The notes under the pieces were generated by a model. That model was given only the letters and a program-made list of their open reading frames with translations. It was not told the origin of the DNA and made no database searches. A stretch of DNA of 11,616 nt, taken from UHGV virus genome UHGV-0128598; one strand, written 5' to 3'. The stretch is from a virus. This document shows positions 1-11,616 of this stretch, piece after piece. The position numbers were made by a program, and so were the translations under genes. Position 1 is the first letter of the stretch, and each line of letters starts with the position of its first letter.

Positions 1-182
1 TGCGGGAAAGCAGACGCAAGAAATAGCGGCAATGTCTGTCCGTCCAGTCGAGCATCGGCGCGATGGAAAAACGTGAAGGGCTGTATCCCGGCGTTTTTCC
101 TCTGTTAACGCTGTTCTGGTGTGGGTTGTGCGATTCTTTATTTTCGTGCATTTTTTGTCTTTATGTCGTATTTTTTCTTTAT

Positions 183-220
183 CAGCACCCCCAACAGCAC
201 CCCAGATTCATGGGGTGCTG
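183..220 (+). promoter_or_regulatory. Tandem direct repeat (CAGCACCCC x2) and perfect 9-bp inverted repeat (CAGCACCCC-8 nt-GGGGTGCTG) in the integrase 5' leader
   Basis: Read directly: cagcaccccc at 183-192 and cagcacccc at 195-203; the latter pairs with ggggtgctg at 212-220. It lies about 20 nt upstream of the int ATG (241) and just 5' of an AAGGA ribosome-binding site. A T-rich imperfectly repeated tract lies further upstream (about 130-180). Function (operator, arm-type site, or leader structure) is inferred. Confidence 0.4.
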
Positions 221-240
221 AACGAAGGTAAAGGAAAAGC

Positions 241-1329
241 ATGGCCTACTATAGCATAGAAAAACGTCAACGCGCCGATGGGACTTTACGCTACCGCTGC
301 ACCGTGGGCGTAAAAGAAGGTGGGAAATATATCTACCGGGAAAACCGAACATTCAGCAAACAGGCCCATGCCAAAACGTGGGGTGCTGGTAGGGTTGCTG
401 AACTGGAAACAAATGGGGTGCCGACCACCAACGACTTAAACAAAATGGTTGTTGGCGATCTGCTCAAACGCTATATCAACGATCCCAACCTCGGCGGCAA
501 AGCCGGGCGCACAAAACGTTATGTACTGGATATGTTGCTGGACTGCAACATCGCCGAAACCCCTCTGACAGACCTTTCAACCAGCCACGTTATCGAGCAT
601 TGCCGCCACAGAAACGGCGCTGGTGCCGGTCCTTCTACTATTAACCACGATGTAAGTTACCTTTCTTCCGTTCTGGCATCCGCCAAACCCGTCTACGGTA
701 TCGACTACACGACCAATCCCGCAACAGATGCAAGACCTCTACTGCTCCAGATGGGGCTGATTGGCAAATCCAAACGCCGCAGCCGCCGCCCTGTGAGCGA
801 CGAACTGGATAGACTGCTCGCAGGGCTTGAGGCCAGAAGCGATCACGTCGCAGCAAAAATCCCCTTCGTTGATATTCTTAACTTCTCAATCCTCAGTTGT
901 ATGCGAGTTGGCGAAGTGTGCAAAATCCGCTGGGAAGATGTAGACGAAAAACAAAAGGCCGTGCTGGTCAGAGACAGAAAAGACCCGCGCAAAAAATCCG
1001 GTAACCATATGCTGGTACCACTTCTCGGCGATGCCTGGAACATAGTGCAACGTCAGCCCAAAATCAGCGAGTTAATTTTCCCTTATAACTCTCGTTCTGT
1101 AACTGCGGGTTTTCAACGTGTCAGGAACGCCCTGGGCATTGAAGACTTGCGCTACCACGATATGCGCCGGGAGGGGGCCAGCAGGCTTTTTGAGGCGGGT
1201 TTTAGTATAGAAGAAGTGGCCCAGGTTACAGGCCATCGGTCTCTTAATGTACTCTGGCAGGTTTATACTGAACTGTTTCCGAAATCCCTGCATGAAAAGT
1301 ACGACGCGCTGCACGCTAAAAAGAAGTAG
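241..1329 (+). CDS. int: Phage tyrosine integrase (site-specific recombinase)
   Basis: 362-aa ORF with ATG start and AAGGA ribosome-binding site 6 nt upstream. C-terminal catalytic region shows the tyrosine-recombinase pattern: R in CMRVGEVCKIRWEDV, H-x-x-R in YHDMRREGASRLF, and H...Y in VTGHRSLNVLWQVYTELF. Sits at the edge of a phage gene block. Confidence 0.85.
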   Translation: MAYYSIEKRQRADGTLRYRCTVGVKEGGKYIYRENRTFSKQAHAKTWGAGRVAELETNGVPTTNDLNKMVVGDLLKRYINDPNLGGKAGRTKRYVLDMLLDCNIAETPLTDLSTSHVIEHCRHRNGAGAGPSTINHDVSYLSSVLASAKPVYGIDYTTNPATDARPLLLQMGLIGKSKRRSRRPVSDELDRLLAGLEARSDHVAAKIPFVDILNFSILSCMRVGEVCKIRWEDVDEKQKAVLVRDRKDPRKKSGNHMLVPLLGDAWNIVQRQPKISELIFPYNSRSVTAGFQRVRNALGIEDLRYHDMRREGASRLFEAGFSIEEVAQVTGHRSLNVLWQVYTELFPKSLHEKYDALHAKKK

Positions 1330-1561
1330 CTTTATACCACGCCTGCCAGCGATACTTATCCTGCCGCAGCTGGCGCAGACATTCAGCAGTTTCTATATCA
1401 GCCTGCAGATCTTCATCGCTGTCTGTTCCAGCTTTGCTCGCTCCCTTGCACGGCTCCTGCATCAAATCCGCTGATGGAGTTGGCCGCATCGAGGGCGCGC
1501 TGACGCAACTGCACAGCGTGATCGTCAAAATCGCACTTAGTATGATTCGGGTCGTTAACAT
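1316..1561 (-). CDS. Rz1-like outer-membrane spanin (o-spanin), overlapped with Rz
   Basis: 81-aa ORF in a different frame from Rz, starting inside Rz (ATG at 1561, GGTGA 5 nt upstream) and running past the Rz stop. N-terminus MLTTRIILSAILTITLCSCVSAPS looks like a lipoprotein signal with Cys at 17 and 19, though the lipobox is not canonical. Position directly after the endolysin and Rz. Its last 14 nt overlap the 3' end of int. Confidence 0.5.
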   Translation of the reverse strand: MLTTRIILSAILTITLCSCVSAPSMRPTPSADLMQEPCKGASKAGTDSDEDLQADIETAECLRQLRQDKYRWQAWYKATSF

Positions 1562-1796
1562 ATTTCACCACATCGCGATAAATGGTCCGGTAAATCACTT
1601 TGCCTTCTGCGCTGGACGCTGCCGCTTTCTGTTCGCCGGTTGCTACAGCCTTCTCAGCCTTTTTACTCTTCTCCTGATATTCGCTGTTTATCTTGTCACT
1701 GTGCGCGTACCAGCCTTTCAAGTAACCCGCGTAATACGCACCGACGAGCAACGCCAGCAGAACGGCCAGCGCTAACAATTTTGTTTTAAGGGTCAC
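1413..1796 (-). CDS. Rz-like inner-membrane spanin (i-spanin)
   Basis: The ORF track gives 1413-1814 (GTG start). A GTG at 1796 overlaps the endolysin stop as GTGA with GGGGGA 7 nt upstream, giving [25 protein letters not shown]..., a basic N-terminus followed by one transmembrane segment and a charged, helix-like periplasmic region. This is the typical Rz layout and position. Start codon is uncertain between 1796 and 1814. Confidence 0.65.
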   Translation of the reverse strand: MTLKTKLLALAVLLALLVGAYYAGYLKGWYAHSDKINSEYQEKSKKAEKAVATGEQKAAASSAEGKVIYRTIYRDVVKYVNDPNHTKCDFDDHAVQLRQRALDAANSISGFDAGAVQGSEQSWNRQR

Positions 1797-2323
1797 TGGT
1801 CTATCCCCCAGCACGTCAGCGCGCTTTCCTGGTCACGACGGGATACCTGCCCGTAGCAGTTATTGGAACGGATCCGGCAATCGCGTCCACCGTCTTTTAT
1901 CCACCACCTGATTGCTTCACATGCCCCCTTCCGATCGCCGGCATTGATTCGCTTATAGAACGTGGATGGGAAACACTTGCCGGGGCCGATATTGTACGGG
2001 CAGAACGACGCAATACCTGCTTTCTGCGGTTCAGTCAGCGGCACTTTGATATTGTGCTCTACCCAGGCTAGCGCTTTATCGCGTTCGATAGCGTTTACCT
2101 GGTCACATTTTGCCTGCGTCAGCTTCATACCCTTCACTACAGGCTTACCATCAACCATCGTGGCACCACGGCAAATCGTCCAAATTCCTCCAGCGTCACG
2201 GTATGCGGAGAGACTGTTGCCCTCTTTCTCATTCAGGAACTGATCGAGAATAACCGATGCTGGCGCACCGGCGAGTACCAGTCCCAGAACAGCAGCGCTA
2301 AGCTTAGTCCTGTTGCTGGTCAT
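1793..2323 (-). CDS. SAR endolysin (T4-type lysozyme fold, phage 21 R-like)
   Basis: 176 aa with ATG start and AGAGG ribosome-binding site. N-terminal Gly/Ala-rich weakly hydrophobic segment [19 protein letters not shown] (signal-anchor-release type) followed by the catalytic triad spacing E-x8-D-x5-T in [16 protein letters not shown]. Start overlaps the holin 3' end by 20 nt; stop overlaps the Rz start. Confidence 0.85.
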
Positions 2324-2540
2324 AGAGTTGAGCCTCTTTGCGACGGTCTTCTTTGATTTTGAAATAGAGATTGGTCAGGTAGGTAACCAGCCCCAGAAAT
2401 ATACTCGCCAGCACACCGATAGCAGCCCACTGGCTTGGGCTGACTTTATCGAGTAATTGCAGTAACCAGAAGACGCCACTGCCCCCGGACGTAATATAGG
2501 AAGCACCTGCCGCCAGACCTGAATGGTTGTTCATCCTCAT
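2304..2540 (-). CDS. Pinholin, phage 21 S-like class II holin with dual-start motif
   Basis: 78 aa with two predicted transmembrane segments and a charged C-terminus ([11 protein letters not shown]). Strong resemblance, from memory, to phage 21 S pinholin ([12 protein letters not shown]...[16 protein letters not shown]). Starts M-R-M (ATG AGG ATG), the Met-basic-Met arrangement used for holin/antiholin dual starts. Directly upstream of a SAR endolysin. Confidence 0.8.
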
Positions 2541-2587
2541 ACCTTACCCCCCGTAGGGAACACTATTAAGTGCTCCGAGGGTAAGGT
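2541..2587 (-). promoter_or_regulatory. Hairpin enclosing the holin ribosome-binding site (perfect 9-bp inverted repeat, 29-nt loop)
   Basis: Plus-strand ACCTTACCC at 2541-2549 is the exact reverse complement of GGGTAAGGT at 2579-2587. On the sense (minus) strand the 3' arm GGGUAAGGU sits immediately 5' of the holin AUG and contains the Shine-Dalgarno-like G-rich element. Confidence 0.4.
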
Positions 2588-2595
2588 GGTGATGT

Positions 2596-2610
2596 GGTCG
2601 GAATCCTGAC
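2596..2610. repeat. Copy A (degenerate) of the 16-bp inverted-repeat motif GGTCGGAATCCCGACC
   Basis: GGTCGGAATCCTGAC read directly; differs from copies B and C by one substitution, with the final base absent (next base is T). Lies in the acyltransferase-holin intergenic region, 55 nt upstream of the holin ATG. Confidence 0.6.
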
Positions 2611-2651
2611 TATTGGAGGTATTGACCCGAGAGCCAACATAATGAATTCAT

Positions 2652-3755
2652 TTAGGGTGTATTTAACCCTTTAATTTTTTTATGGCTTAGCAAGCCGAAC
2701 AGGCCCCATATTTTATTAAAGGCGCGTGTTACTTTTTTATCCAGAAGCTTTATGTACAGCGCTGCAATAGTAAACGATATTAACATCGAAATAACTATCG
2801 TCACCTCATAGTTAACAAAAGTCTTCGTAACCGGATATTCAACCCACCACTTCCTTTCAAACATAGCGTGAGACCAAAATCCGATATCGGCATGTATTAA
2901 ATACAGTGGGTATGTCATCGCCCCAAGAAACTTAACAACATTATAAAACTTACCGACTTCAGATACGTTAGATGCACACCAGGTTAACGTAACAAGAGAG
3001 ATACATGCGAGCAGAAGAGATGCATCAGAAACTGAATACCCAAAACTTCCATTTACATATGAATTAAAACCCAACATTCTATTATATATGAGGATCACAC
3101 TAAGAACCATCAAGACGAAATCAAAAGGAGATGGCTTATTTTTCATTATGTCATATATTACTATCCCTGCAATGAAATGACCGGCATGTTCAGTTATAAA
3201 TAGCGCATCAACAAAGCTAGAATGGATTAAAAATTGATTGCTGTATGAAATCACCAACCATGCAAAGCAAATCTCCCTTCTGTAACCACTCCAAATGTTA
3301 AATAACATCATAATGAAAACCAATATATAAAATGTCACCTCTTTCTGAATTGTCCAATAGATATCGCTAAAAAAATGATATCCGAACACTTGGGGGAAAA
3401 ACGTAAAGCTATAGAATAAAGAAACAATCCTTTCCTTAAAATCAACCATTGGTATAAAGCACTGAAACACTAAAACTATAAATCCAAATATTATAAAGGT
3501 GGGTACTATCCTATTAATCCTTGACTTAATAAATTCAACAGGTGTTCTTCCAACTGATGAAAGTGATATTACAAATCCACTTATAATGAAAAATAAATCA
3601 ACACCAAAGTCCCCAAAATAGAAGGCATTAACTGTTAACTCTTTCGGTAGGAAGCCTGAGATAGGCCCAGCGAACAAGTAGTGGTACAACATCACCATCA
3701 TAAATGCCATAAAGCGAAGACCGTCGAGCGCTTCAATCCTTACTGTGGTTTTCAT
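2652..3755 (-). CDS. Integral-membrane acyltransferase, Acyl_transf_3 (OafA/Oac) family; probable O-antigen O-acetyltransferase
   Basis: The track starts at TTG 3758; ATG at 3755 is the likely start (AGAGGA upstream), about 367 aa. Highly hydrophobic with many predicted transmembrane segments and the family motifs: R-x10-H (LDGLRFMAFMMVMLYH), FFxISG (VDLFFIISGFVIS) and RI.P (RINRIVPTF). Markedly AT-rich compared with its neighbours. Confidence 0.85.
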   Translation of the reverse strand: MKTTVRIEALDGLRFMAFMMVMLYHYLFAGPISGFLPKELTVNAFYFGDFGVDLFFIISGFVISLSSVGRTPVEFIKSRINRIVPTFIIFGFIVLVFQCFIPMVDFKERIVSLFYSFTFFPQVFGYHFFSDIYWTIQKEVTFYILVFIMMLFNIWSGYRREICFAWLVISYSNQFLIHSSFVDALFITEHAGHFIAGIVIYDIMKNKPSPFDFVLMVLSVILIYNRMLGFNSYVNGSFGYSVSDASLLLACISLVTLTWCASNVSEVGKFYNVVKFLGAMTYPLYLIHADIGFWSHAMFERKWWVEYPVTKTFVNYEVTIVISMLISFTIAALYIKLLDKKVTRAFNKIWGLFGLLSHKKIKGLNTP

Positions 3756-3760
3756 CAAAT

Positions 3761-3803
3761 CCTCTGGAGTATGCTTTTTACTAAGGAAATCATACCCCAG
3801 AGG
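3761..3803 (-). promoter_or_regulatory. 13-bp inverted repeat (17-nt loop) between tailspike and acyltransferase, enclosing the acyltransferase ribosome-binding site
   Basis: Plus-strand cctctggagtatg (3761-3773) and cataccccagagg (3791-3803) are reverse complements with one mismatch. On the minus-strand RNA that mismatch is a G-U wobble, so all 13 bp pair; on the plus-strand RNA it would be a C-A mismatch. The 3' arm contains the AGAGG element 5 nt before the start. Confidence 0.4.
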
Positions 3804-3819
3804 CTTTACTAATCAAAGT

Positions 3820-6321
3820 TTATCTTGTCAATCGCGCGACGATACCCGCCATGACAAAAACGATTATCTGGTCGTAGTTTAATCCGTATGTGTCGGCCTC
3901 TACATCATGCTCAATCATTTTATACTTTCTGTAATCAAGCCCGTGTCTAGCCATTACCTTCATGACATGCTGTACGGTATACCCAATGTTAACCCCCGCC
4001 TGCTCGCCAAAGTCTCGGCAATCCTTGAGCCACCGGAAAGTACCTGCGCCTAATGCAAGCTCCTGGGATGCTGCAATCTCGGCATCAGTAAATGGTTCAA
4101 TCTCAGTTTTCTGGCGTGCATCAGAGGTAGTAACCACGCCACCTGCTGAATATACACTAGCCCATCTCCTTGAAGAGTTTCCAAGTGTGTAAGTATTGTC
4201 AATATGGGGACCACATGCCCCATTAACATCAAGAGGAAATATTGGATTATCAGTGTTAACCCCAACATTACCACCGCGTGGGTTAATAACTACCTGGTAG
4301 TTATTACCTGATGAATCACTACCCTGAATAAAACCGCCATTAGAACCAGAGTTGCTTAAACATCCAAACTGTAACTCTCTACCACCATCATTATATGAAG
4401 ATCTAAATATTGCTGATGTTTTCAACGTTGAATCTGACAGCGGAATATTTGTTTTATTATCTACAGAAAATAATGCCCTTGGTGTTCCTCCCGTATTCAT
4501 TACCCCAACAAGCCCGCCTGGTGTTATCTCCATAACTTTATGTGGCTTATAGGCCCCATCATCACCATTGTAGAACCGTATGGGGTAATAGTATCCGTTG
4601 CCAGCTATACCGGCTCTAATCTCGTATTCACCAGTCGCTTTTGCAGATATACTGAGATTTTCTTCATCAGCCCCCGTAGTCTTCTGCACGCGGATCGTAC
4701 TTATCTGCGCCCCAATATCGTCACGAATTTTATATGTTGCGCCTGTAGCATTTATAGACGTGTCCTGTAAATTACAGGTGTTGCCGTTATTTGAAATACT
4801 GACAACAGTGCGTAGCGTACCGTTCAGCCAGAATTTATAGGCTCCACTACCGTAACCGAAGAAAAAAAACGGGTCCCCTGACGTTCTGGTGCAAACACCG
4901 TTAATCACGTCACAAATGCCACCACCAGTGGTGTACACATAATGGAATTTTGAGTGCGTACCCACTGCCGCAGTAAGATCCCCGCCGCCTATTTCTGTTA
5001 CGGAAATCTGCCCTGTTGAGGTTAATGCAGTAATTACCAGCGCCCGTTCAAATGCGTATATAGCATCGCCTACTGACCACTTATCTAAGTCGAATAAAGA
5101 GCCACCCTCTCTGACCAGAATATTTTGTGATTGGTGGACTAGTTGACCTTGTGCAGCAGAGCCGTATACAACCACTTCTGAAGGATTGTAATTTTTACTA
5201 GTCTGAATACGCATCCAATTTGCATGACCATCAGATGATAAAAACATACCGTCACCTGAATCCATTAAAGCCCCACCACCGACCTTGAATCCCCCTGAGT
5301 TAGTAGTGGTACCTGCCGAAACAACGCCAGCCCCAAATTTGGTCTCATCTCGTTTACGATACTGGACATTAAGGAATGCCGAGAACGATACTGCTGGTGA
5401 TAAGATTGCCTCGGAGTCCACAACCAGTGTTGGGAGTTTCGCCCACACTAAAGCTATTGGTGTATTGCAAACATAATTCCCCTGCGGAACGTGCAAAGTG
5501 GTACACCCGGAAGGTAGGTTGGATATCATAGAAGCCCAAGCCGCGCTCTCGTCCGAACCATCCCCCCTGACCCCGAAATCTTTTACGCTCAGTGTGTCGG
5601 CGTTTTTATCATGCTGTGTACGCCCCACAGATCCAGAATATGGCTGTTTTACCCCGATAAGAGCATCGCCCTTGCCGCTATCGGTGCTCGCGAGATCTAC
5701 CAAAACATCAGCAGCGCTACCACTCTCTGGACGAACAAATATCGGAGCACCCTCAGCATTGTAAGCCTGTAATCTGTTTGCACGCTGCTCAGCTGGTGCA
5801 AGCGGTGCCACGTAGTTTTCAGGCACGCGCAATGCCCTGTTAAGATTGGTCTGCCCGACCTCCTGCACGTATTTTTTGGTTGCTGCGTCCTGGTCATTAA
5901 CCGGATCCGCAAGGCCGGATATGCGATACCCTTCTGCGTTAAACGGTCCTCCAAGCAACGGGCGACGTAACGCCAGTCCGAGATAAATAAAAGAACGCTG
6001 GATAGCCATCCAGAGGCGGTCAAAATCTTTATTGACGGTATCTGCCAGCAGATCGCCATTGTCCTGGTAATCAGTCAGGCGATAGGTAGGAACAACACGT
6101 TCCAGCATAACAACCGTGCCGTTAGCAGGTGGGGTTAAAAACGTAAGATCACCACCGCTAACGTTACCCACTCCCGACACAGTAAATCCAGTAGTAACAG
6201 GCGTACCATTAAGACTCACCTGAATATCGCTGGCGCTGATGATGTAGAACTCAAAGGGAAAAACGGTCGTCAGACCGTTGGCGTTATAAATAATATAGGG
6301 GGTCTGATTCGGTACCGACAT
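3820..6321 (-). CDS. Tailspike/tail fibre: T7 gp17-like N-terminal anchor, pectate-lyase-like beta-helix depolymerase, C-terminal peptidase S74 intramolecular chaperone
   Basis: 833 aa, ATG start. The N-terminal 150 aa or so resemble, as recalled, the T7 tail-fibre N-terminal domain (VFPFEFY, ERVVPTYRLTDY, ISGLADPVNDQDAATKKYV). The mid region carries the pectate-lyase-3 start signature SVKDFGVRGDGSDESAAWASMISNL. The C-terminus has the autoproteolytic chaperone motif ...SSRRWASVYSAGGVVTTSDARQKTEIEPF. Confidence 0.9.
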   Translation of the reverse strand: MSVPNQTPYIIYNANGLTTVFPFEFYIISASDIQVSLNGTPVTTGFTVSGVGNVSGGDLTFLTPPANGTVVMLERVVPTYRLTDYQDNGDLLADTVNKDFDRLWMAIQRSFIYLGLALRRPLLGGPFNAEGYRISGLADPVNDQDAATKKYVQEVGQTNLNRALRVPENYVAPLAPAEQRANRLQAYNAEGAPIFVRPESGSAADVLVDLASTDSGKGDALIGVKQPYSGSVGRTQHDKNADTLSVKDFGVRGDGSDESAAWASMISNLPSGCTTLHVPQGNYVCNTPIALVWAKLPTLVVDSEAILSPAVSFSAFLNVQYRKRDETKFGAGVVSAGTTTNSGGFKVGGGALMDSGDGMFLSSDGHANWMRIQTSKNYNPSEVVVYGSAAQGQLVHQSQNILVREGGSLFDLDKWSVGDAIYAFERALVITALTSTGQISVTEIGGGDLTAAVGTHSKFHYVYTTGGGICDVINGVCTRTSGDPFFFFGYGSGAYKFWLNGTLRTVVSISNNGNTCNLQDTSINATGATYKIRDDIGAQISTIRVQKTTGADEENLSISAKATGEYEIRAGIAGNGYYYPIRFYNGDDGAYKPHKVMEITPGGLVGVMNTGGTPRALFSVDNKTNIPLSDSTLKTSAIFRSSYNDGGRELQFGCLSNSGSNGGFIQGSDSSGNNYQVVINPRGGNVGVNTDNPIFPLDVNGACGPHIDNTYTLGNSSRRWASVYSAGGVVTTSDARQKTEIEPFTDAEIAASQELALGAGTFRWLKDCRDFGEQAGVNIGYTVQHVMKVMARHGLDYRKYKMIEHDVEADTYGLNYDQIIVFVMAGIVARLTR

Positions 6322-6342
6322 GGCGTGTAACCTCTGGCAGGG

Positions 6343-7953
6343 TTAATAATCGACTTCGACCTCATGGTCTCCGTCACTTAACTGCCAATGTTCCCGCGAT
6401 TGTCCGGTCGGAATCCCGACCACTTTGCCGATACGAACCGGCGTTGCACTAATAGCACCCGCACCAGAATCAATGAAATCGTCCGGCTGGTTGGTCAGTG
6501 CCGGGTTAAAGTCCCGCATCTGGTCGTACATCGGGCCATCAAGCACGTCAGTGTGCGCCCACAGGAAACGGGAAGACAAAGGAGCTTCGAACGCATCAAG
6601 GATACGCTTCTGCTTGTTTGTCACGCTGAATTCTTCCCGCACGCCGCACCCGGTACCTTTTAACGCCTGCCGCAGCAGTTTTCCCGCAAAGCCGCCGGGG
6701 CCGTTTACCTCGACACAAACAACGGGGATCTGGTATCGGATAACCAGCTCTTTAATCTGGGCGACCTGCCCGCCAGTAATCTTGTCGTTATCGTCAAACT
6801 CTGCCAGTTCACCAGTCAGCTCCTTGCAAACATGCCAGTACAGATGTCCGCGCGCGTCAGTCAGTATCAGGGATAACGCTGAGGCGTCCGCTTTCACTTT
6901 ACCGGTTGCCACGTCCCACCACGCCACAGCACCAACAATTTGCGTGCTGCCGAGCCACATCGAGGCGGTACGGTTGGCGTAGCGAATTTCAGGATGGATG
7001 TTGTACTCACGGATGCGATCAGGATCGAGACGAACGTCGCCAACGGGTTTACTGTGCAGCTGGTACTGGCTGTCCCACTCGTTAACGGTGCGACATTCTT
7101 TACGGCGCAACTCCAGCTCGTCATGATCGAATCGCTCAGGCCAGGCACATCCGGCGTAGAAATCAATAACCGTCTCTGGCGCCGCAGCAAACTCCACGCC
7201 GTCGGCGGTCAGCTTGTAGTCAACATCCTCGACCAGCAGTCGCGCCGCTTTATGGATGCCCGCGAAAACGTACTCCGGCCGGAACGGAATAACGTAGCGC
7301 AGCTGCGTGGCATCCTTCGCCTCGATGCGCTTTTCTTTCTCAAACAGTTTAATGGTCAGACAGTCAGCACCTGCCGATTCCATTTCATCGTAGAGGCTGT
7401 CATGTGTGTGCGGTGTACCGATAAAGAGCTTTCGCCCGCCGGGGATCAGGATGTGAGTTTGCTCGCTCAGGCGGTATCGCAGTTTCTCACGCGCTTCCGG
7501 CGTCTGGATGTTGCCGGGGACTTCCACGTCGTCGTTCTGGCACTCATTTGCACGCGCGCCGGTAACGTTCGACAGGATACCTTTTGCGAACATGCTCGCG
7601 TTACGCATATCCAGCGAACCGTTAACCCACCACTGCTCGACTGTGCCGAGTCCATCCGGCAACATGCCTTTTGTCAGGGGGTGATTGCGTAAAACGTTCT
7701 GCGTATCGCGGCTGGTTTTGCGCGCTGTGGAATCTGATTCAGACTGGTGCAGGACCCGGTACTGGCGGTCGCAGTAATATCGCCATGCGTTATAAACGCC
7801 CAGTATGGTAGATTTACCGAAACCACGAAAACAGCGAAGCACCGCAAGATTTCCGCGATGCTCCAGCCAGTGACAGGCACGATAGTGGCAGTCCGGAACG
7901 TCCCAGTTCATCCGCTCCGCCCACATTAAAAAGAAGGCGAGGAACGAAATCAT
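6343..7953 (-). CDS. Terminase large subunit, T7 gp19-like (DNA maturase B)
   Basis: 536 aa, ATG start. Walker A in RGFGKSTILG, plus DDVEVP...AREKL and FIGTPHTHDSLYDE, which resemble T7 gp19 as recalled (AFRGIGKS, ADDVEIP...AREKL, YLGTPQT..LY). Start overlaps the upstream gene stop as ATGA. Confidence 0.85.
   Translation of the reverse strand: MISFLAFFLMWAERMNWDVPDCHYRACHWLEHRGNLAVLRCFRGFGKSTILGVYNAWRYYCDRQYRVLHQSESDSTARKTSRDTQNVLRNHPLTKGMLPDGLGTVEQWWVNGSLDMRNASMFAKGILSNVTGARANECQNDDVEVPGNIQTPEAREKLRYRLSEQTHILIPGGRKLFIGTPHTHDSLYDEMESAGADCLTIKLFEKEKRIEAKDATQLRYVIPFRPEYVFAGIHKAARLLVEDVDYKLTADGVEFAAAPETVIDFYAGCAWPERFDHDELELRRKECRTVNEWDSQYQLHSKPVGDVRLDPDRIREYNIHPEIRYANRTASMWLGSTQIVGAVAWWDVATGKVKADASALSLILTDARGHLYWHVCKELTGELAEFDDNDKITGGQVAQIKELVIRYQIPVVCVEVNGPGGFAGKLLRQALKGTGCGVREEFSVTNKQKRILDAFEAPLSSRFLWAHTDVLDGPMYDQMRDFNPALTNQPDDFIDSGAGAISATPVRIGKVVGIPTGQSREHWQLSDGDHEVEVDY
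6406..6421. repeat. Copy B of the 16-bp inverted-repeat motif GGTCGGAATCCCGACC (6-bp arms, 4-nt spacer)
   Basis: Exact 16-mer shared with copy C. Lies inside the last 26 codons or so of the terminase gene (encoding ...VGIPTG...), 84 nt upstream of the tailspike ATG. Confidence 0.65.
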
Positions 7954-8291
7954 TTTTTGCCTTTCTGCAGGCGCTCGATAATGGCGAGGGCTTCACGCTC
8001 CGCCTTCGATACCTGCTGCCCCAGCGCAAAGGCTTCATCATCCTGCCCGGGGTTATCTGAAGGCGTACCACCGCGCGTTTGCATGCCAATAAGGGAATGC
8101 ACCTTAATCAGCAGCGTCAGCGAAGCCGCCGCGTTCTTCTTGTCCCAGTATCGATCGCCGCGCTCGTCTTTGGTCAGTTCGCTGGGTTTCTTCCCCGCCC
8201 CCGGCCAGTTGTCCGGATCGGCTTCTTCGAGCACCACGTCAGTGAGTTTATCGCTCAGCGCGGTAAGGCGTGTCTTGTAATCCTGATGCAT
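7950..8291 (-). CDS. Putative terminase small subunit (called by position only)
   Basis: The track extends to a TTG at 8375, but that would read through a terminator-like hairpin and the 3' end of the upstream gene. The first ATG is at 8291 (MHQDYKTRLTALSDK..., 113 aa). Acidic/charged small protein whose stop overlaps the large terminase start (ATGA). No sequence motif recognised. Confidence 0.45.
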   Translation of the reverse strand: MHQDYKTRLTALSDKLTDVVLEEADPDNWPGAGKKPSELTKDERGDRYWDKKNAAASLTLLIKVHSLIGMQTRGGTPSDNPGQDDEAFALGQQVSKAEREALAIIERLQKGKK

Positions 8292-8319
8292 AAAAAAGCC
8301 CTGTAGTGAATACAGGGCT
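8292..8319 (-). terminator. Intrinsic-terminator-like hairpin (9-bp stem, 5-nt loop) followed by T6 on the minus strand
   Basis: Minus strand reads AGCCCTGTA-TTCAC-TACAGGGCT-TTTTT and then the ATG at 8291. Lies between the gp16-like gene stop (8356) and the small terminase start. It leaves no room for a Shine-Dalgarno element, so it may instead be a leader or processing structure. Confidence 0.5.
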
Positions 8320-8337
8320 ATGGTGTATGCTTTTTGA

Positions 8338-8353
8338 GGTCGGAATCCCGACC
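8338..8353. repeat. Copy C of the 16-bp inverted-repeat motif GGTCGGAATCCCGACC
   Basis: Exact 16-mer, starting 2 nt after the stop of the gp16-like gene on the minus strand, 46 nt upstream of the small terminase ATG and just upstream of the terminator-like hairpin. Confidence 0.65.
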
Positions 8354-8355
8354 GA

Positions 8356-9870
8356 TTACCGCATGCCGGGGTCAACCTGATTTATCAGCGGCGCTATCCA
8401 GAAAAGATTATTACCCGGCAGCAGCGTACGCACGTTATGCAGTACCCGATCGCCAGCATCACCGTTGAGCACTCCGGCGGTCACATCGGTGACGGTATCC
8501 AGCAAGCCAAACGTCGGGCCGAGAGCGGAGCCAATAAAGCCACGGCTGGCATAGCGAGACTGTGTGCCGGTACCGAGCAGTGCACCCAGCCCCACCATAC
8601 CGCCGGAGGCTTTTTCTGCCATGTTGTTATATTCCATCAGCGGGCCGAGAATACCGGACCGGTCGATACCTTCAATGGCCAGTTTCTGAGGCGACCAGTC
8701 AACCTCTTTACCATTTGCGGATTGTTTAAGTGCGTACGTCAGTGCGCCGAGGCTAATCTGGAAAGCGGTACCGTAATAAAACTGTCCGGTTCCCTCCTGC
8801 AGGCCGCCCAGCGTTGCGCGGTTGTAGGACGCGGTAGCGAACGATTTAAACTGGAAGATAGTTTTACCCAGTGGCGTGCTGGCCCACAATGGCGTATCGC
8901 CGATCCCCGGTGTGATAACTGTATTGTTAACGTCTTTGAGCACGGCCGACTGAAAAACGCCAGCCACATGCTGATCGTCCCATTTTTCAAAATTGCCGAT
9001 ATGCCAGCCATTGATTACCTCACCGTGTTTTTCGAATTCGCTGCGAATACGCGCGGCCATATTGTCGTTAATGCCGAGCTTGGCAAGGCGGCGGCCCGCA
9101 AACGCGCCGGACAGAATGCCGTCGGAGGTGATCATGCCGTTTACCGATTTGTTCATATCGTCGAAGTGGCCCATCAGCGTGAGCTTGCCGAACGCATCGG
9201 TGACGCGCTCCATTCCCGCCTCTACCGCTGTAGTGCGGGAGGAGCTGTCTACCAGGTCACCCATCGTACGCGCACGGGTATGCAGGATGGTTTCCAGCCC
9301 GACGGCCATTTTTAACTGTTCGGCCCGGCTGGCCTTGAATGCCGGCGACCGGGTTATCAGCGCAGAGTAACCGCGCATGGTATTGCCAAACCCGTTAACC
9401 ATCACACCGCGGGCGAGATCAGGAATAGCGGAAACGGTCATACCGCCCAGCTTGGTGACAAAGTTGGCGCTACGCAGAAACGCACCGGCGCGAACGAAAA
9501 ATGATGATGGGTCATCCGGCATACCGTAGGTACCGACGAGGCGATCGCGAAGCGCCAGAATATCGCGCAGATCGGCTTCGCGCGCCTTCGCCAGCTTTTC
9601 CTGCTCTGCCGGGCGTAACCGCATCAGCGCGTCGTATTCGTCCTGGATGGCAGCGAGCTGCGAATCCAGCGACTTGTTGCCAAAGGTACGGGTTAATTCA
9701 ATTTCCGCTGAGGCTTCGCGGATATGACGCTGCAGGACGTAGTTTGCATCGCTCTCCAGATAATCTTTCATCAGGCGATCGGGAACGCTCAACGTACGCG
9801 ATTTGGTGCTGCCCGGCGATTTCAGCATCTTCGCGGGACATGGTTTTCTCACCGCGTGACCACCAGTCAA
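8356..9870 (-). CDS. Internal virion (ejection) protein, T7 gp16-like, C-terminal portion; apparently separated from the N-terminal portion by a frameshift
   Basis: 504-aa ORF. Gly/Ala-rich hydrophobic stretches and a FQFKSF motif resembling the C-terminal part of T7 gp16 as recalled. The first 30 codons or so look non-protein-like and overlap the upstream ORF, so the true N-terminal boundary is probably the frame junction near 9795-9802. Confidence 0.6.
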   Translation of the reverse strand: MTGGHAVRKPCPAKMLKSPGSTKSRTLSVPDRLMKDYLESDANYVLQRHIREASAEIELTRTFGNKSLDSQLAAIQDEYDALMRLRPAEQEKLAKAREADLRDILALRDRLVGTYGMPDDPSSFFVRAGAFLRSANFVTKLGGMTVSAIPDLARGVMVNGFGNTMRGYSALITRSPAFKASRAEQLKMAVGLETILHTRARTMGDLVDSSSRTTAVEAGMERVTDAFGKLTLMGHFDDMNKSVNGMITSDGILSGAFAGRRLAKLGINDNMAARIRSEFEKHGEVINGWHIGNFEKWDDQHVAGVFQSAVLKDVNNTVITPGIGDTPLWASTPLGKTIFQFKSFATASYNRATLGGLQEGTGQFYYGTAFQISLGALTYALKQSANGKEVDWSPQKLAIEGIDRSGILGPLMEYNNMAEKASGGMVGLGALLGTGTQSRYASRGFIGSALGPTFGLLDTVTDVTAGVLNGDAGDRVLHNVRTLLPGNNLFWIAPLINQVDPGMR

Positions 9871-11182
9871 CCAGCATATTGCGGAATTTATCTCGCTCGC
9901 TAACGATTTTACCCACCTTGTACACGCGCGGAAAATAGCTGGTCTGTCCCATCGCTTTCAGTTCGGCATCCGGCGGGAGTAAGCCCAGTTCCTGCTGGGC
10001 TGTCTTCACGCGGTTAATGACCGTACGCATTGCCTGCGCAGCTTCCTGCACTTTTGCATTAACGTGCACGTCGCCGTTACGCAGCGCCTCGCCAACCTGT
10101 TCACGGAAGGCCGTATAACCCAGATCGCCGCCTTCGGCTTTATACTGGGTGTATGCCTGCTTATTCGCAGTAACGACGGCCGCCTCTTCGCGGTGCCAGC
10201 CACGTACGCGCGTCTCGGCTGCTACCGGTGTTTCGATACCGCGCAGGTTGCCTTCCAGCGTGAAGTTATTCTCCGCCAACTCCAGCGCTGTCCGGCGCGC
10301 TTCTTTTGATGGGGATTCCATCAGGCGGGTGATCGGCGTCAGATAGCTACCGGCCTTTTTAGCCAGCTTGCCGAGCGGGCCGCCAGACACCGGTGTGAGG
10401 TCTTCCAGCGTTGCTTCGCGAATACGCATGGCGCCGACGCTGCCACCGTTCGGTAAAGTATCCGCCAGGGCGTCAGCTGCGTTGTTAATCGTTGGCGCGG
10501 CATTCATGTTATCGAGCGCCTCCGCCACTTCCCGTGTAGCCGCGTTTCTTACCGATGGGGTGATCATCGCGCCAGCAGTAGCAAATACACCGCTGAGAAG
10601 CGCGCCGGCTGTAATGTGCGCGGCGCTCTCCCTTGCTGTTCTGGTGTACTGCTCGTTATTGAGCGCAACCTCGCTAAGTGCGGTACCGGCGGCGCCAATA
10701 GCAATCTGAGAACCAATACGAGCAGCCAGGCTTCCCTGCGCACCGGGAATAAACATCGATGCGACCGTGACAGGGTCGATAACCCCGGCGGCGATACTGG
10801 CCAGAGTTCCTTCAGCGCCTGCCTCAGACAAAACCCGACGGTCTTCATTTTCATCGTCTATCTGGTTTTTTATCCAGGCGGTTTCCTCTGGCGATCGAGA
10901 ATCCGCAAAGGCGGATCCCCATTGTTCGTACCCCTTTAGTTCGTTTTTATCAGAATAAGGGTTATACCCGTCCGCCGGTTCGAATTGTTTGGCCGAGCGG
11001 AACATTCCAGCCAGCAGGTTATTCTGACGAAATGCAGCGCCCCACACAGACGGCTCATCCTGCTGAGGTGCTGGGTTAGTACCTTCAGGCAAAGGCACAT
11101 CAAATCCGGTAGGTGCAGCCAGGACATTACCCGCCGGAGTGAATCCGTTATTGAGTTCTTCAGGGGTGGCGTATACCGGCAT
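9698..11182 (-). CDS. Internal virion (ejection) protein, T7 gp16-like, N-terminal/central portion
   Basis: 494-aa ORF, ATG start overlapping the upstream stop (TAATG). Motifs resemble T7 gp16 as recalled: TPEEL, SEAGAEGTLASIAAGVIDPVTVASMFIPG (compare AGIIGAGVDPLSYVPMVG) and EKTMSREDAEI (compare AKMSREETRY). The last 30 codons or so are low-complexity and overlap the next ORF in another frame. No N-terminal transglycosylase-like region is evident. Confidence 0.6.
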   Translation of the reverse strand: MPVYATPEELNNGFTPAGNVLAAPTGFDVPLPEGTNPAPQQDEPSVWGAAFRQNNLLAGMFRSAKQFEPADGYNPYSDKNELKGYEQWGSAFADSRSPEETAWIKNQIDDENEDRRVLSEAGAEGTLASIAAGVIDPVTVASMFIPGAQGSLAARIGSQIAIGAAGTALSEVALNNEQYTRTARESAAHITAGALLSGVFATAGAMITPSVRNAATREVAEALDNMNAAPTINNAADALADTLPNGGSVGAMRIREATLEDLTPVSGGPLGKLAKKAGSYLTPITRLMESPSKEARRTALELAENNFTLEGNLRGIETPVAAETRVRGWHREEAAVVTANKQAYTQYKAEGGDLGYTAFREQVGEALRNGDVHVNAKVQEAAQAMRTVINRVKTAQQELGLLPPDAELKAMGQTSYFPRVYKVGKIVSERDKFRNMLVDWWSRGEKTMSREDAEIAGQHQIAYVERSRSPDERLSGERCKLRPAASYPRSLSGN

Positions 11183-11577
11183 TATTCAGTGCTCCACGAA
11201 AAGTAATTTTTAACCCTGTCCATGCGCTCGTTATGCAGGCGCTTGTACTGCTCATCGAGCGCACGGTGCTTATCTTTGAACCCACGAATATCCTGCCCGC
11301 GTTGCAGCTCATTGCGATCATGTTCTTCGCGCTCTTCCTGCATTTTTTTGTATGGCGCCCACTCTTCCAGTGACGGTTTCCAGCGCATCGGCCTGCCGTA
11401 CGAATCGTAGAACGGTTGTACCGCCTCGATACCATCCTTATCTTTTGTTCGCACCATGATGGCGTAATCGCCATTGCGGGCCGTCAGTACATCAGGGGTA
11501 ATTTCCAGATCGCCGCCAATACGCGACTCCGGCGTTTTGCTGGTGACAGGCGCTGCGTTACCGGGTGATGCTGCCAA
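11182..11577 (-). CDS. Hypothetical protein, translationally coupled to the gp16-like gene
   Basis: The track ORF starts at a TTG (11577) with no ribosome-binding site. The first ATG is at 11457 (MVRTKDKDG..., about 91 aa). Charged, helix-like C-terminus. Stop overlaps the next start (TAATG). A different frame is open from the window edge to a stop at 11484-11486, so an upstream gene may be cut by the window. Start and reality of this ORF are uncertain. Confidence 0.35.
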   Translation of the reverse strand: MAASPGNAAPVTSKTPESRIGGDLEITPDVLTARNGDYAIMVRTKDKDGIEAVQPFYDSYGRPMRWKPSLEEWAPYKKMQEEREEHDRNELQRGQDIRGFKDKHRALDEQYKRLHNERMDRVKNYFSWSTE

Positions 11578-11616
11578 CTTACTGATTTAGTGTATGATGG
11601 TGTTTTTGAGGTGCTC

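Follow-up and report, generated by a model that had tools for sequence, protein, structure and literature searches.

This work concerns one gene in the window, by which we mean the whole stretch of 11,616 nucleotides of the virus genome UHGV-0128598 that was analysed. The gene lies between the tail fibre gene and the holin gene of a prophage and encodes a membrane O-acyltransferase that consists of the acyltransferase-3 (AT3) domain only. Judging from its composition and its surroundings, the AT3 gene is a moron, i.e. independently acquired cargo of a temperate podophage, and its product is probably a receptor-masking O-acetyltransferase that acts on a surface polysaccharide of the lysogen, in the first place on the O-antigen.

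The course of events that we propose is as follows. The AT3 protein, with its approximately 10 helices, would take an acyl group, most likely acetyl, from cytoplasmic acyl-CoA, pass it across the inner membrane and esterify a hydroxyl group on one of the sugars of a surface polysaccharide, the O-antigen repeat being the most probable. The serotype of the lysogen would be altered, and the receptor of the prophage's own fibre, as well as that of the fibres of kin phages, would be masked. The result would be superinfection exclusion, together with an O-antigen that is shielded from the fibre, as is the case with Sf6 Oac and BTP1 GtrC/OafB. What we infer from the evidence below is that the group is acetyl, that the O-antigen accepts it, that the lysogen expresses the gene from the promoter-like site at 3816-3789, and that exclusion is the phenotype.

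The AT3 gene and its product

The family assignment, which had been proposed in a first-pass annotation of this DNA, is borne out by the profile search: the protein matches Acyl_transf_3 (PF01757) from end to end with 84.2 bits, where the cut-off is 31, and the alignment runs over residues 9-332 of the protein and positions 2-325 of the 326 in the profile. In addition, it matches PHROG 3333 'O-acetyltransferase' with 123 bits. The conserved features of AT3 proteins were taken from the 31 characterised carbohydrate acetyltransferases of Pearson et al. 2020 (PMC7448272), where the histidine of the R/K-X10-H motif is invariant and the reference residues are R14/H25, R69/R72 and G202 in OafA and R73/R76 in Oac. 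In the window protein the first of these motifs is present as R14-X10-H25 in transmembrane helix (TMH) 1, and H25 is invariant in an alignment of 81 homologous sequences. The FFXISG motif of TMH2 reads F55-F56-I57-I58-S59-G60, with F55, F56, S59 and G60 invariant in the same alignment; R76-I-N-R79 aligns to R73-A-R-R76 of Oac, R79 being invariant; and the conserved transmembrane glycine corresponds to G197, which is again invariant. An AlphaFold2 model based on the 81 homologues (predicted local distance difference test, pLDDT, of 95) consists of helices only, about 10 of them long and hydrophobic. A fold search of the PDB with this model returned nothing informative (best E = 0.18, template modelling score <=0.2), and a sequence search of the PDB returned no match.

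PF01757 is the sole hit of the 367-residue protein, i.e. the SGNH domain (PF19040), which in enzymes of the OafA/OafB type is fused to the C-terminal side of an 11th helix, is absent. The identity to Sf6 Oac is 19% in a direct alignment, and about 25-27% to the g341c, BTP1 and SPN1S genes (tblastn, E 1e-6 to 6e-4). The hallmarks of the OafA/Oac family that were originally noted therefore hold for the AT3 family as such, which includes phage O-antigen acetylases, but the protein is AT3-only like Oac and not of the OafA type, and its identity to these enzymes is 19-26%. It resembles Oac in its domain content and in the position of its gene next to a tailspike gene and about 2.5 kb from attL/dusA, but at 19-27% identity it is not close to any characterised member. 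A search of NCBIfam for curated equivalogs such as WecH and OpgC gave none, E. coli WecH and OpgC not having been compared directly. The protein belongs to an uncharacterised AT3 clade that is about 20-26% identical to the studied enzymes.

The gene has the minus orientation of the late genes, and it probably starts with the ATG at 3755, which is the start given in RefSeq; the mechanically called open reading frame (ORF) 2652-3758 begins one codon earlier, with TTG at 3758. The earlier reading of this region as a single gene between the tail gene and the lysis cassette is correct, as there is one long ORF, separated by 64 nt from the fibre stop (3820) and by 111 nt from the holin start (2540). 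No ORF of at least 50 aa overlaps it on the opposite strand.

The composition of the gene agrees with the claim that it is AT-rich and was separately acquired. Its G+C content is 35.5% (53% in the rest of the window) and its G+C content at third codon positions (GC3) is 37%, whereas the neighbouring genes have 47-58% and a GC3 of 55-67%, except for the tail fibre gene (42%). Compared to 821 other segments of 1104 bp, none of which overlaps the cassette (mean 0.536, standard deviation 0.038, minimum 0.431), the AT3 gene has a z of -4.75 in G+C. In codon usage it deviates more than any other gene of the window, with a cosine of 0.65 to the backbone as opposed to 0.88-0.97 for the genes of the terminase, lysozyme, integrase and internal virion protein, so the gene is the outlier in both of the per-gene measures that the first-pass annotation had proposed. 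Since GC3 is low beside low values at the first and second codon positions, the dip is not merely an effect of a hydrophobic protein. The ratio of nonsynonymous to synonymous substitution rates (dN/dS) is 0.08 relative to the copy in locus L182, which is 80% identical as protein and about 22% divergent as DNA; by this measure the AT3 gene is under strong purifying selection.

Positions 1-11564 of the window are 100% identical to the chromosome of E. coli STEC383, save for a 77-bp gap, and 99.9% identical to that of B379. Of 5426 complete E. coli genomes, 2 carry the AT3 gene. Index entries for the exact protein exist in about 187 sample blocks; wherever the context was read, it was the same dusA prophage.

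The slot between the fibre and holin genes

The strongest contextual argument for the function of the AT3 gene is the place that it occupies. Relatives were collected by means of the large terminase (TerL), which gave 75 genome loci and 542 IMG/VR loci; all of the former and 80 of the latter were surveyed, and the fibre and lysis genes could both be located in 87. The slot between them is empty or contains a small ORF only in 39 of these loci. It is occupied by a gtrABC operon on the opposite strand (GtrA, GT2 and GtrII by Pfam) in 24, by AT3 genes in 14, by an EpsG-like gene in one and by other ORFs in nine. Thus 38 of the 87 loci have AT3 or gtrABC in the slot, a distribution that marks it as a hotspot of O-antigen modification in this lineage. 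We found no published account of it as such a hotspot within the literature searched. The view that a conversion gene is unusual in a T7-like backbone does not survive this survey: the lineage is common and temperate, and such cargo is the rule.

The occupants vary in orientation and in domain content. Three of the 14 AT3 genes are co-oriented with the late genes; the other 11 point the other way. The set includes two AT3-SGNH fusions and one AT3 gene that is paired with a separate GDSL protein. The fusions (PF19040) are found at L107 13897-15942 and L158 14457-16325, while at L121 13365-15547 an AT3-only gene is followed by the separate GDSL/SGNH protein, as if a two-domain enzyme had been split. 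All of the cargo is AT-rich (G+C 0.35-0.45, with 0.42 for the gtrABC slots) in comparison to the terL genes (0.53-0.56).

A degraded version of the slot was seen in the dusA prophage remnant of CAVP773 (L003 14882-18739). Here the slot contains a 430-aa ORF without a Pfam hit, followed by the insertion sequence (IS) IS421, part of a fibre of the window type and more IS elements, which marks the slot region as a target of IS-mediated decay.

The tail fibre and its link to the cargo

The AT3 gene lies directly downstream of the gene for a receptor-binding tail protein, as had been noted at first sight. However, the description of this protein as a depolymerase-type tailspike could not be established. 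There is a match between residues 212-284 and the beginning of the Sf6 tailspike beta-helix (2vbe/7sg7, E ~2e-10), and the C-terminal S74 chaperone, which many but not all tailspike depolymerases have, is present. The protein itself has no beta-helix Pfam hit (PF12708), its homologues P0134 and P0141 reach 25-26 bits where 27 is the cut-off, and the AlphaFold2 model, based on an alignment of 22 sequences, has a mean pLDDT of 46 and is unusable.

The receptor-binding region is found in other backbones as well. It recurs at 66-79% protein identity on a P22 head-binding domain (P0134, P0139) in P22-like prophages, and is then followed by gtrABC. A continuous block of 4.6 kb, which comprises the receptor-binding region together with gtrC, gtrB and gtrA, is shared at 86% DNA identity between locus L100 (12374-16966) and the P22-like locus L185 (7418-12010). 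L100 belongs to the same lineage as the window prophage (TerL 99%) and has the window fibre type at 88.6% DNA identity, yet its slot holds gtrABC.

Among 88 loci we distinguished 70 receptor-binding types, 10 of which were seen more than once, and within these 10 the presence or absence of cargo was always concordant. Three of the types are mixed, and in each of them the alternatives are gtrABC and AT3. The first-pass annotation had regarded the receptor-recognising and the receptor-modifying gene as one unit. This is right inasmuch as the receptor-binding region and the modifier move as a block, but not inasmuch as the same fibre type can carry gtrABC instead of AT3. From these comparisons, fibre and cargo are linked while the chemistry of the modifier is swapped within a fibre type.

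Relatives of the AT3 protein

The relative in L182 has the same fibre type upstream, and this locus is homologous to the window throughout 3900-2541 at 78% DNA identity. Other relatives are chromosomal. P0006 (71% identical, intact, L183) and P0010 (67%, L022) are encoded by the last gene of a wzm/wzt O-antigen locus near rml, ugd and gnd, and P0008 and P0009 are encoded beside GT8/GT2 glycosyltransferases. Note that P0010, from a Klebsiella pneumoniae O-locus (L022 8001-9020), is without the R-X10-H motif of TMH1 and has unrelated N-terminal residues, i.e. it is maybe frameshifted or mis-called.

Two chromosomal copies, L019 and L017 (Biostraticola), have kept about 70-100 bp of upstream homology, including a remnant of the 3' end of the fibre gene, which suggests that they are of phage origin. 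The copy in Biostraticola tofi (L017 2491-3678) stands alone, adjoins folD and Peptidase_S24, is 63% identical to the window protein and retains homology to the last ~40 nt of the fibre gene; it looks like a domesticated remnant of the phage cassette.

Cassette boundaries and leader

In a DNA comparison the homology of the relatives to the window ends at ~3830/3820 and restarts at ~2611-2613, which delimits the cassette listed in Table 1. Its G+C content is 0.358, as opposed to 0.529 for the rest of the window. The leader of the holin gene (2541..2613) does not belong to the cassette: it is kept in relatives, with 92-98% identity in L003 and L100, and in those with an empty slot, where the gap between the fibre and holin genes is about 70 bp, it is the only sequence between the two genes.

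The leader of the AT3 gene combines a promoter-like site with a hairpin. The promoter scan found TTGATT-16-TATGAT, which agrees with the consensus in 9 of 12 positions. The 13-bp hairpin is formed by a 5' arm at 3803-3791 and a 3' arm at 3773-3761, and the latter holds the Shine-Dalgarno (SD) sequence GAGG (3764-3761). This hairpin is predicted to fold with -22.3 kcal/mol (z = -4.05), whereas an RNA that starts past the -10 hexamer, and so has no 5' arm, is unfolded (-1.3). The hexamers, the anti-SD block and the SD/start region are conserved in four contexts, two of them non-phage. The fold itself is kept in the phage context of L182, weak in L019 and lost in L017; the stand-alone Biostraticola copy must have its own promoter. 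Taken together, the leader suggests that the gene may be translated from a lysogenic transcript and silenced on late read-through.

An Rfam scan of 2400-3950 returned no family. Scans for more copies of the leader pattern gave none in IMG/VR and four in metagenomes, which are identical to the two known types save for one chance hit. A terminator-like site on the plus strand (2654-2680) was rejected as a candidate, since it is antisense to the AT3 gene and such sites are no more numerous than in shuffled sequence.

The exchange of cargo and the leader are the sole parts of this picture that go somewhat beyond the textbook, and here we venture a tentative generalisation, which we put forward with little confidence. 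The receptor-binding region and the modifier might form an exchangeable two-part module that travels across the unrelated backbones of the P22 type and the T7-type/dusA lineage. Within one fibre type, the alternation of glucosylation by gtrABC and acetylation by AT3 would allow a phage to keep out kin with the same fibre and yet to escape an exclusion based on the other chemistry. The AT3 leader would then be a promoter placed inside an SD-sequestering hairpin, translated from the lysogenic transcript and silent on late read-through.

The O-antigen of the hosts

STEC383 has the serotype Onovel26:H30 (PMC8705337). Its O-antigen cluster is a small Wzx/Wzy cluster of the rhamnose type without an acetyltransferase, which would suit an added acetyl group. 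We could not link the AT3 gene to known O-antigen chemistry, as Onovel26 has no published structure and the cluster of B379 is unrelated. AL.H8 and CI5 are examples of Onovel26 strains in which the prophage is absent.

Both clusters have peculiarities of their own. In B379 (L197, 1872374-1879295) several copies or fragments of ISAs1 lie among galF, a glycosyltransferase, the flippase and the next glycosyltransferase, and the O-antigen may be defective. In STEC383 (L195, 1934111-1938514) the order is gnd, ugd, IS1 and hisIE, and wzzB, which is at this place in B379, is seemingly missing.

Weighing of the proposed function

A number of points weigh against a receptor-masking O-antigen acetyltransferase of the lysogen and should be considered together. 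With 19-26% identity to any characterised O-antigen acetylase and no NCBIfam equivalog, both the substrate and the acyl group are extrapolated. The enzymatic nature of the fibre and its receptor remain putative. Most of the cargo in the slot is on the opposite strand, whereas the AT3 gene is co-oriented with the late operon, and there is no intrinsic terminator between it and the holin gene; given this orientation and the lack of a terminator, the gene may be expressed mainly late. The promoter-like sites of the region are not above the shuffled expectation (7 vs 5.2), and the one in the leader is just a 9/12 match. Finally, the same prophage (99.9-100%) resides in two complete genomes with unrelated O-antigen clusters, of the rhamnose type in STEC383 and of the mannose type in B379, and one acceptor-specific enzyme and one fibre do not easily fit both. 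It is possible that the receptor and acceptor are not the O-unit, that the O-locus was replaced after lysogeny or that one of the hosts is effectively rough. It is because of these two hosts that we call the O-antigen reading probable and do not rate it higher.

With respect to timing, the same activity could be produced mainly late, through a fibre-AT3-holin transcript. It would then mask the receptor on dying cells and cell debris and keep released virions from being lost to re-adsorption, in analogy to Llp of phage T5, and this would be compatible with lysogenic conversion. The gene is indeed embedded in the late operon, 64 nt past the fibre stop and with no terminator before the holin, in an orientation that is the minority among the slot AT3 genes (11 of 14 are on the opposite strand). 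On a read-through RNA, however, the leader hairpin (-22.3 kcal/mol) would bury the SD sequence and oppose efficient late translation, and a conserved promoter-like site lies just upstream of the gene. Moreover, the characterised analogues Oac and BTP1 GtrC act in the lysogen, and in the window the AT3 gene is intact even though the prophage is defective (a frameshifted virion gene and IS1), which fits a benefit to the host better than one to the progeny. We think it unlikely that late production is what the gene is mainly for.

With respect to the acceptor, the enzyme could act on an envelope glycan that every E. coli has, such as enterobacterial common antigen, the lipopolysaccharide core, colanic acid or capsule, or the periplasmic glucans, and the benefit would then be independent of the O-type. 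AT3-only proteins do modify many glycans (PMC9558356), and both the two hosts of the identical prophage, with their unrelated O-antigen clusters, and the distant identity to known O-antigen acetylases, without a curated equivalog, would be in line with such an acceptor. We nevertheless hold a common glycan to be an improbable target: the nearest homologues with an informative context are encoded in loci for O-antigen or glycosyltransferases, gtrABC operons take the same slot in other prophages, and the presence of cargo tracks the fibre type, which points to a link with the receptor.

That the AT3 gene is merely a passenger of recent capture, which is not expressed or has no function and hitch-hikes by the recombination-prone fibre gene, seems very improbable to us, for although its rarity (2 of 5426 genomes) and the lack of a terminator or a strong promoter would agree with it, the frame and all catalytic motifs are intact, dN/dS is 0.08 over ~22% DNA divergence, the pairing with the fibre type is kept in the diverged L182 and the gene is intact in a prophage that is already decaying.

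The prophage and its lineage

The remaining features of the window are collected in Table 1 together with those of the cassette.

Table 1. Features of the window, with their positions, strand and the evidence on which they are based.
Feature	Position	Strand	Basis
dusA, 5' part (host gene, attL side)	1..151	-	RefSeq annotation of the identical STEC383 sequence; match to Salmonella dusA
Tyrosine integrase, adjoins the dusA attachment site at the prophage end	241..1329	+	PF00589
Rz-like spanin	1413..1814	-	PHROG 2536, 159 bits
Endolysin (phage lysozyme)	1793..2323	-	PF00959, 90.7 bits
P21-type class II holin, dual-start motif M-R-M (ATGAGGATG)	2304..2540	-	PF04971, 105 bits
Intergenic leader of the lysis cassette, part of the backbone and downstream boundary of the slot, strong hairpin over the holin ribosome-binding site	2541..2613	-	120-nt fold -40.7 kcal/mol, z = -3.86
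Cargo cassette, ~1.2 kb (leader, AT3 gene and 38-nt tail)	~2614..3819	-	Homology break in related prophages
AT3-only membrane O-acyltransferase gene, 367 aa	2652..3755	-	PF01757, 84.2 bits; PHROG 3333; intact motifs
AT3 leader: -35 TTGATT (3816-3811), -10 TATGAT (3794-3789), hairpin, SD, ATG at 3755	3756..3819	-	Putative signals
Tail fibre/tailspike-type receptor-binding protein, 833 aa	3820..6321	-	PF03906, PF13884
Variable receptor-binding region of the fibre	~3830-5580	-	GC3 of the middle part of the fibre gene, 0.39
S74 intramolecular-chaperone domain of the fibre	~3937-4125	-	PF13884, 30 bits; structure matches 7y5s, 4uw8, 3gw6
T7 tail-fibre N-terminal adaptor	~5863-6300	-	PF03906, 43.5 bits
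T7-type large terminase (TerL), lineage marker	6343..7953	-	NCBIfam termin_lrg_T7, 294 bits, cut-off 150
Small gene, then large internal virion protein gene	Beyond the terminase		Annotation of the window
IS1 terminal inverted repeat	11564-11616		Cuts into the virion gene region

The STEC383 copy of the prophage measures ~34 kb and has dusA at one end and a residual dusA fragment at the other (RefSeq annotation). Products of the early region are a LexA-family repressor, a VapE-type primase, DUF2800, DUF2815, DNA polymerase A, VRR-NUC, SNF2 and PrtN. With an integrase that adjoins the 5' end of dusA and the residual fragment at the far end, it belongs to the dusA-associated integrase elements, a family described by Farrugia et al. 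2015 (PMC4482086). It is T7-like with regard to the terminase (294 bits) and the N-terminal adaptor of the fibre (43.5 bits), but not in the sense of a strictly lytic phage with its own single-subunit RNA polymerase, as it has an integrase, a LexA-family repressor and a place of integration at dusA; the annotation of the 34-kb STEC383 prophage, on which alone this point was checked, lists no RNA polymerase. The hosts of the TerL lineage are Enterobacterales, Pseudomonas, Acinetobacter and other Proteobacteria, i.e. the backbone is a widespread temperate lineage that has been little studied. In its gene content it is a mosaic of early genes of the BPP-1/APSE type and a virion module of the T7 type. 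APSE was also considered as an explanation for the slot and dismissed: early genes of the YeP4 type are common to APSE, but its toxin slot and virion module differ.

The window copy of the prophage has two lesions. At 9814-9815 a stretch of 77 bp that STEC383 and all relatives possess has been lost between the short direct repeats CGGCG(C/A)TTTC. This deletion shifts the frame of the 967-aa internal virion protein gene, which is thus split into the overlapping ORFs 8356-9870 and 9698-11182. In addition, the STEC383 prophage runs on uninterrupted where the window has the IS1 repeat; the STEC383 copy, for its part, has a frameshift in its SLT gene. Because of the deletion and the IS1 insertion the window copy is defective; the AT3 gene is intact nonetheless.

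Two further features of the backbone should be mentioned. Directly upstream of the dual start of the holin (ATG-AGG-ATG, M-R-M) there is a strong conserved hairpin, 2532-2613, which is part of the backbone and not of the cargo; the combination resembles the sdi-type control of holin and antiholin starts in lambda S. A gene for a 149-aa GNAT N-acetyltransferase is conserved in the lineage inside the virion/internal-protein module (L001 33439-33888, the STEC383 prophage, and L004 18021-18470), which is an unusual place for such an enzyme.

Significance and comparison with known systems

Modification of the O-antigen by phages alters the serotype, the recognition by vaccines and antibodies and the susceptibility to phages. 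The AT3 locus sits in a Stx2e-producing lineage of pig and human E. coli with an undescribed O-antigen (Onovel26), and the use of the slot in the prophage lineage bears on the prediction of host range, of superinfection immunity and of escape from phage therapy.

It is instructive to compare the AT3 cassette and its backbone to systems that are already known. With respect to the backbone, temperate T7-like phages have been described before. The induced Yersinia phages YeP4-6 share the order of fibre, lysis genes and integrase with the window prophage, and the TerL of YeP4 is 77% identical; the fibre-holin slot of YeP4, however, carries neither AT3 nor gtr cargo.

The closest relatives of the AT3 protein that have an informative context are the products of the AT3 genes at the end of Klebsiella-type wzm/wzt O-antigen loci (L022/L183), which are likewise AT3-only and 67-71% identical. 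These genes are chromosomal, lie within a biosynthetic operon and have upstream sequences unrelated to the window leader, whereas the window gene is phage-borne and has a leader of its own. WbaK provides a precedent for an AT3-only gene that is appended to an O-antigen cluster (PMC9558356).

The gtrABC cassettes of P22-like and other prophages occupy the same slot, can be found next to the same fibre type (L100) and are likewise AT-rich. They differ from the AT3 cassette in that they consist of three genes, act by glucosylation through GtrA, GtrB and GtrC, and are on the opposite strand in the lineage. In the characterised cases gtrABC operons modify the O-antigen.

Among the phage acetyltransferases, Sf6 Oac (OacA), gp15 of g341c and the oac products of phiV10 and SPN1S share with the window protein the AT3-only architecture of about 330-370 aa and the motifs R-X10-H, FFXISG and RXXR. 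In Sf6 the tailspike gene is followed by oac and then by int, i.e. as in the window the gene is located near the integrase end of a temperate podophage. Sf6 Oac acetylates the O-antigen and thereby blocks the endorhamnosidase tailspike of the phage itself (PMC9558356). The differences are that Sf6 has a P22-type and the window a T7-type virion module, that the dedicated terminator of Sf6 is lacking in the window, and that the window gene is co-oriented with the late genes.

The best functional model is provided by BTP1, whose GtrC/OafB gene adjoins the tailspike gene, like the AT3 gene in the window. BTP1 GtrC is expressed in the lysogen, is both necessary and sufficient for protection against phage, protects the O-antigen from the resident tailspike and blocks superinfection (PMC4413052). 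OafB is an AT3-SGNH fusion that acts on rhamnose (PMC7448272, PMC9558356), while the window protein has no SGNH domain and is about 26% identical to it. By analogy, the AT3 gene matches the paradigm of Sf6 Oac and BTP1 GtrC/OafB both in its position and in the function that we propose for it. The Sf6/P22/BTP1 paradigm would thus be extended to another backbone, without current understanding being overturned.

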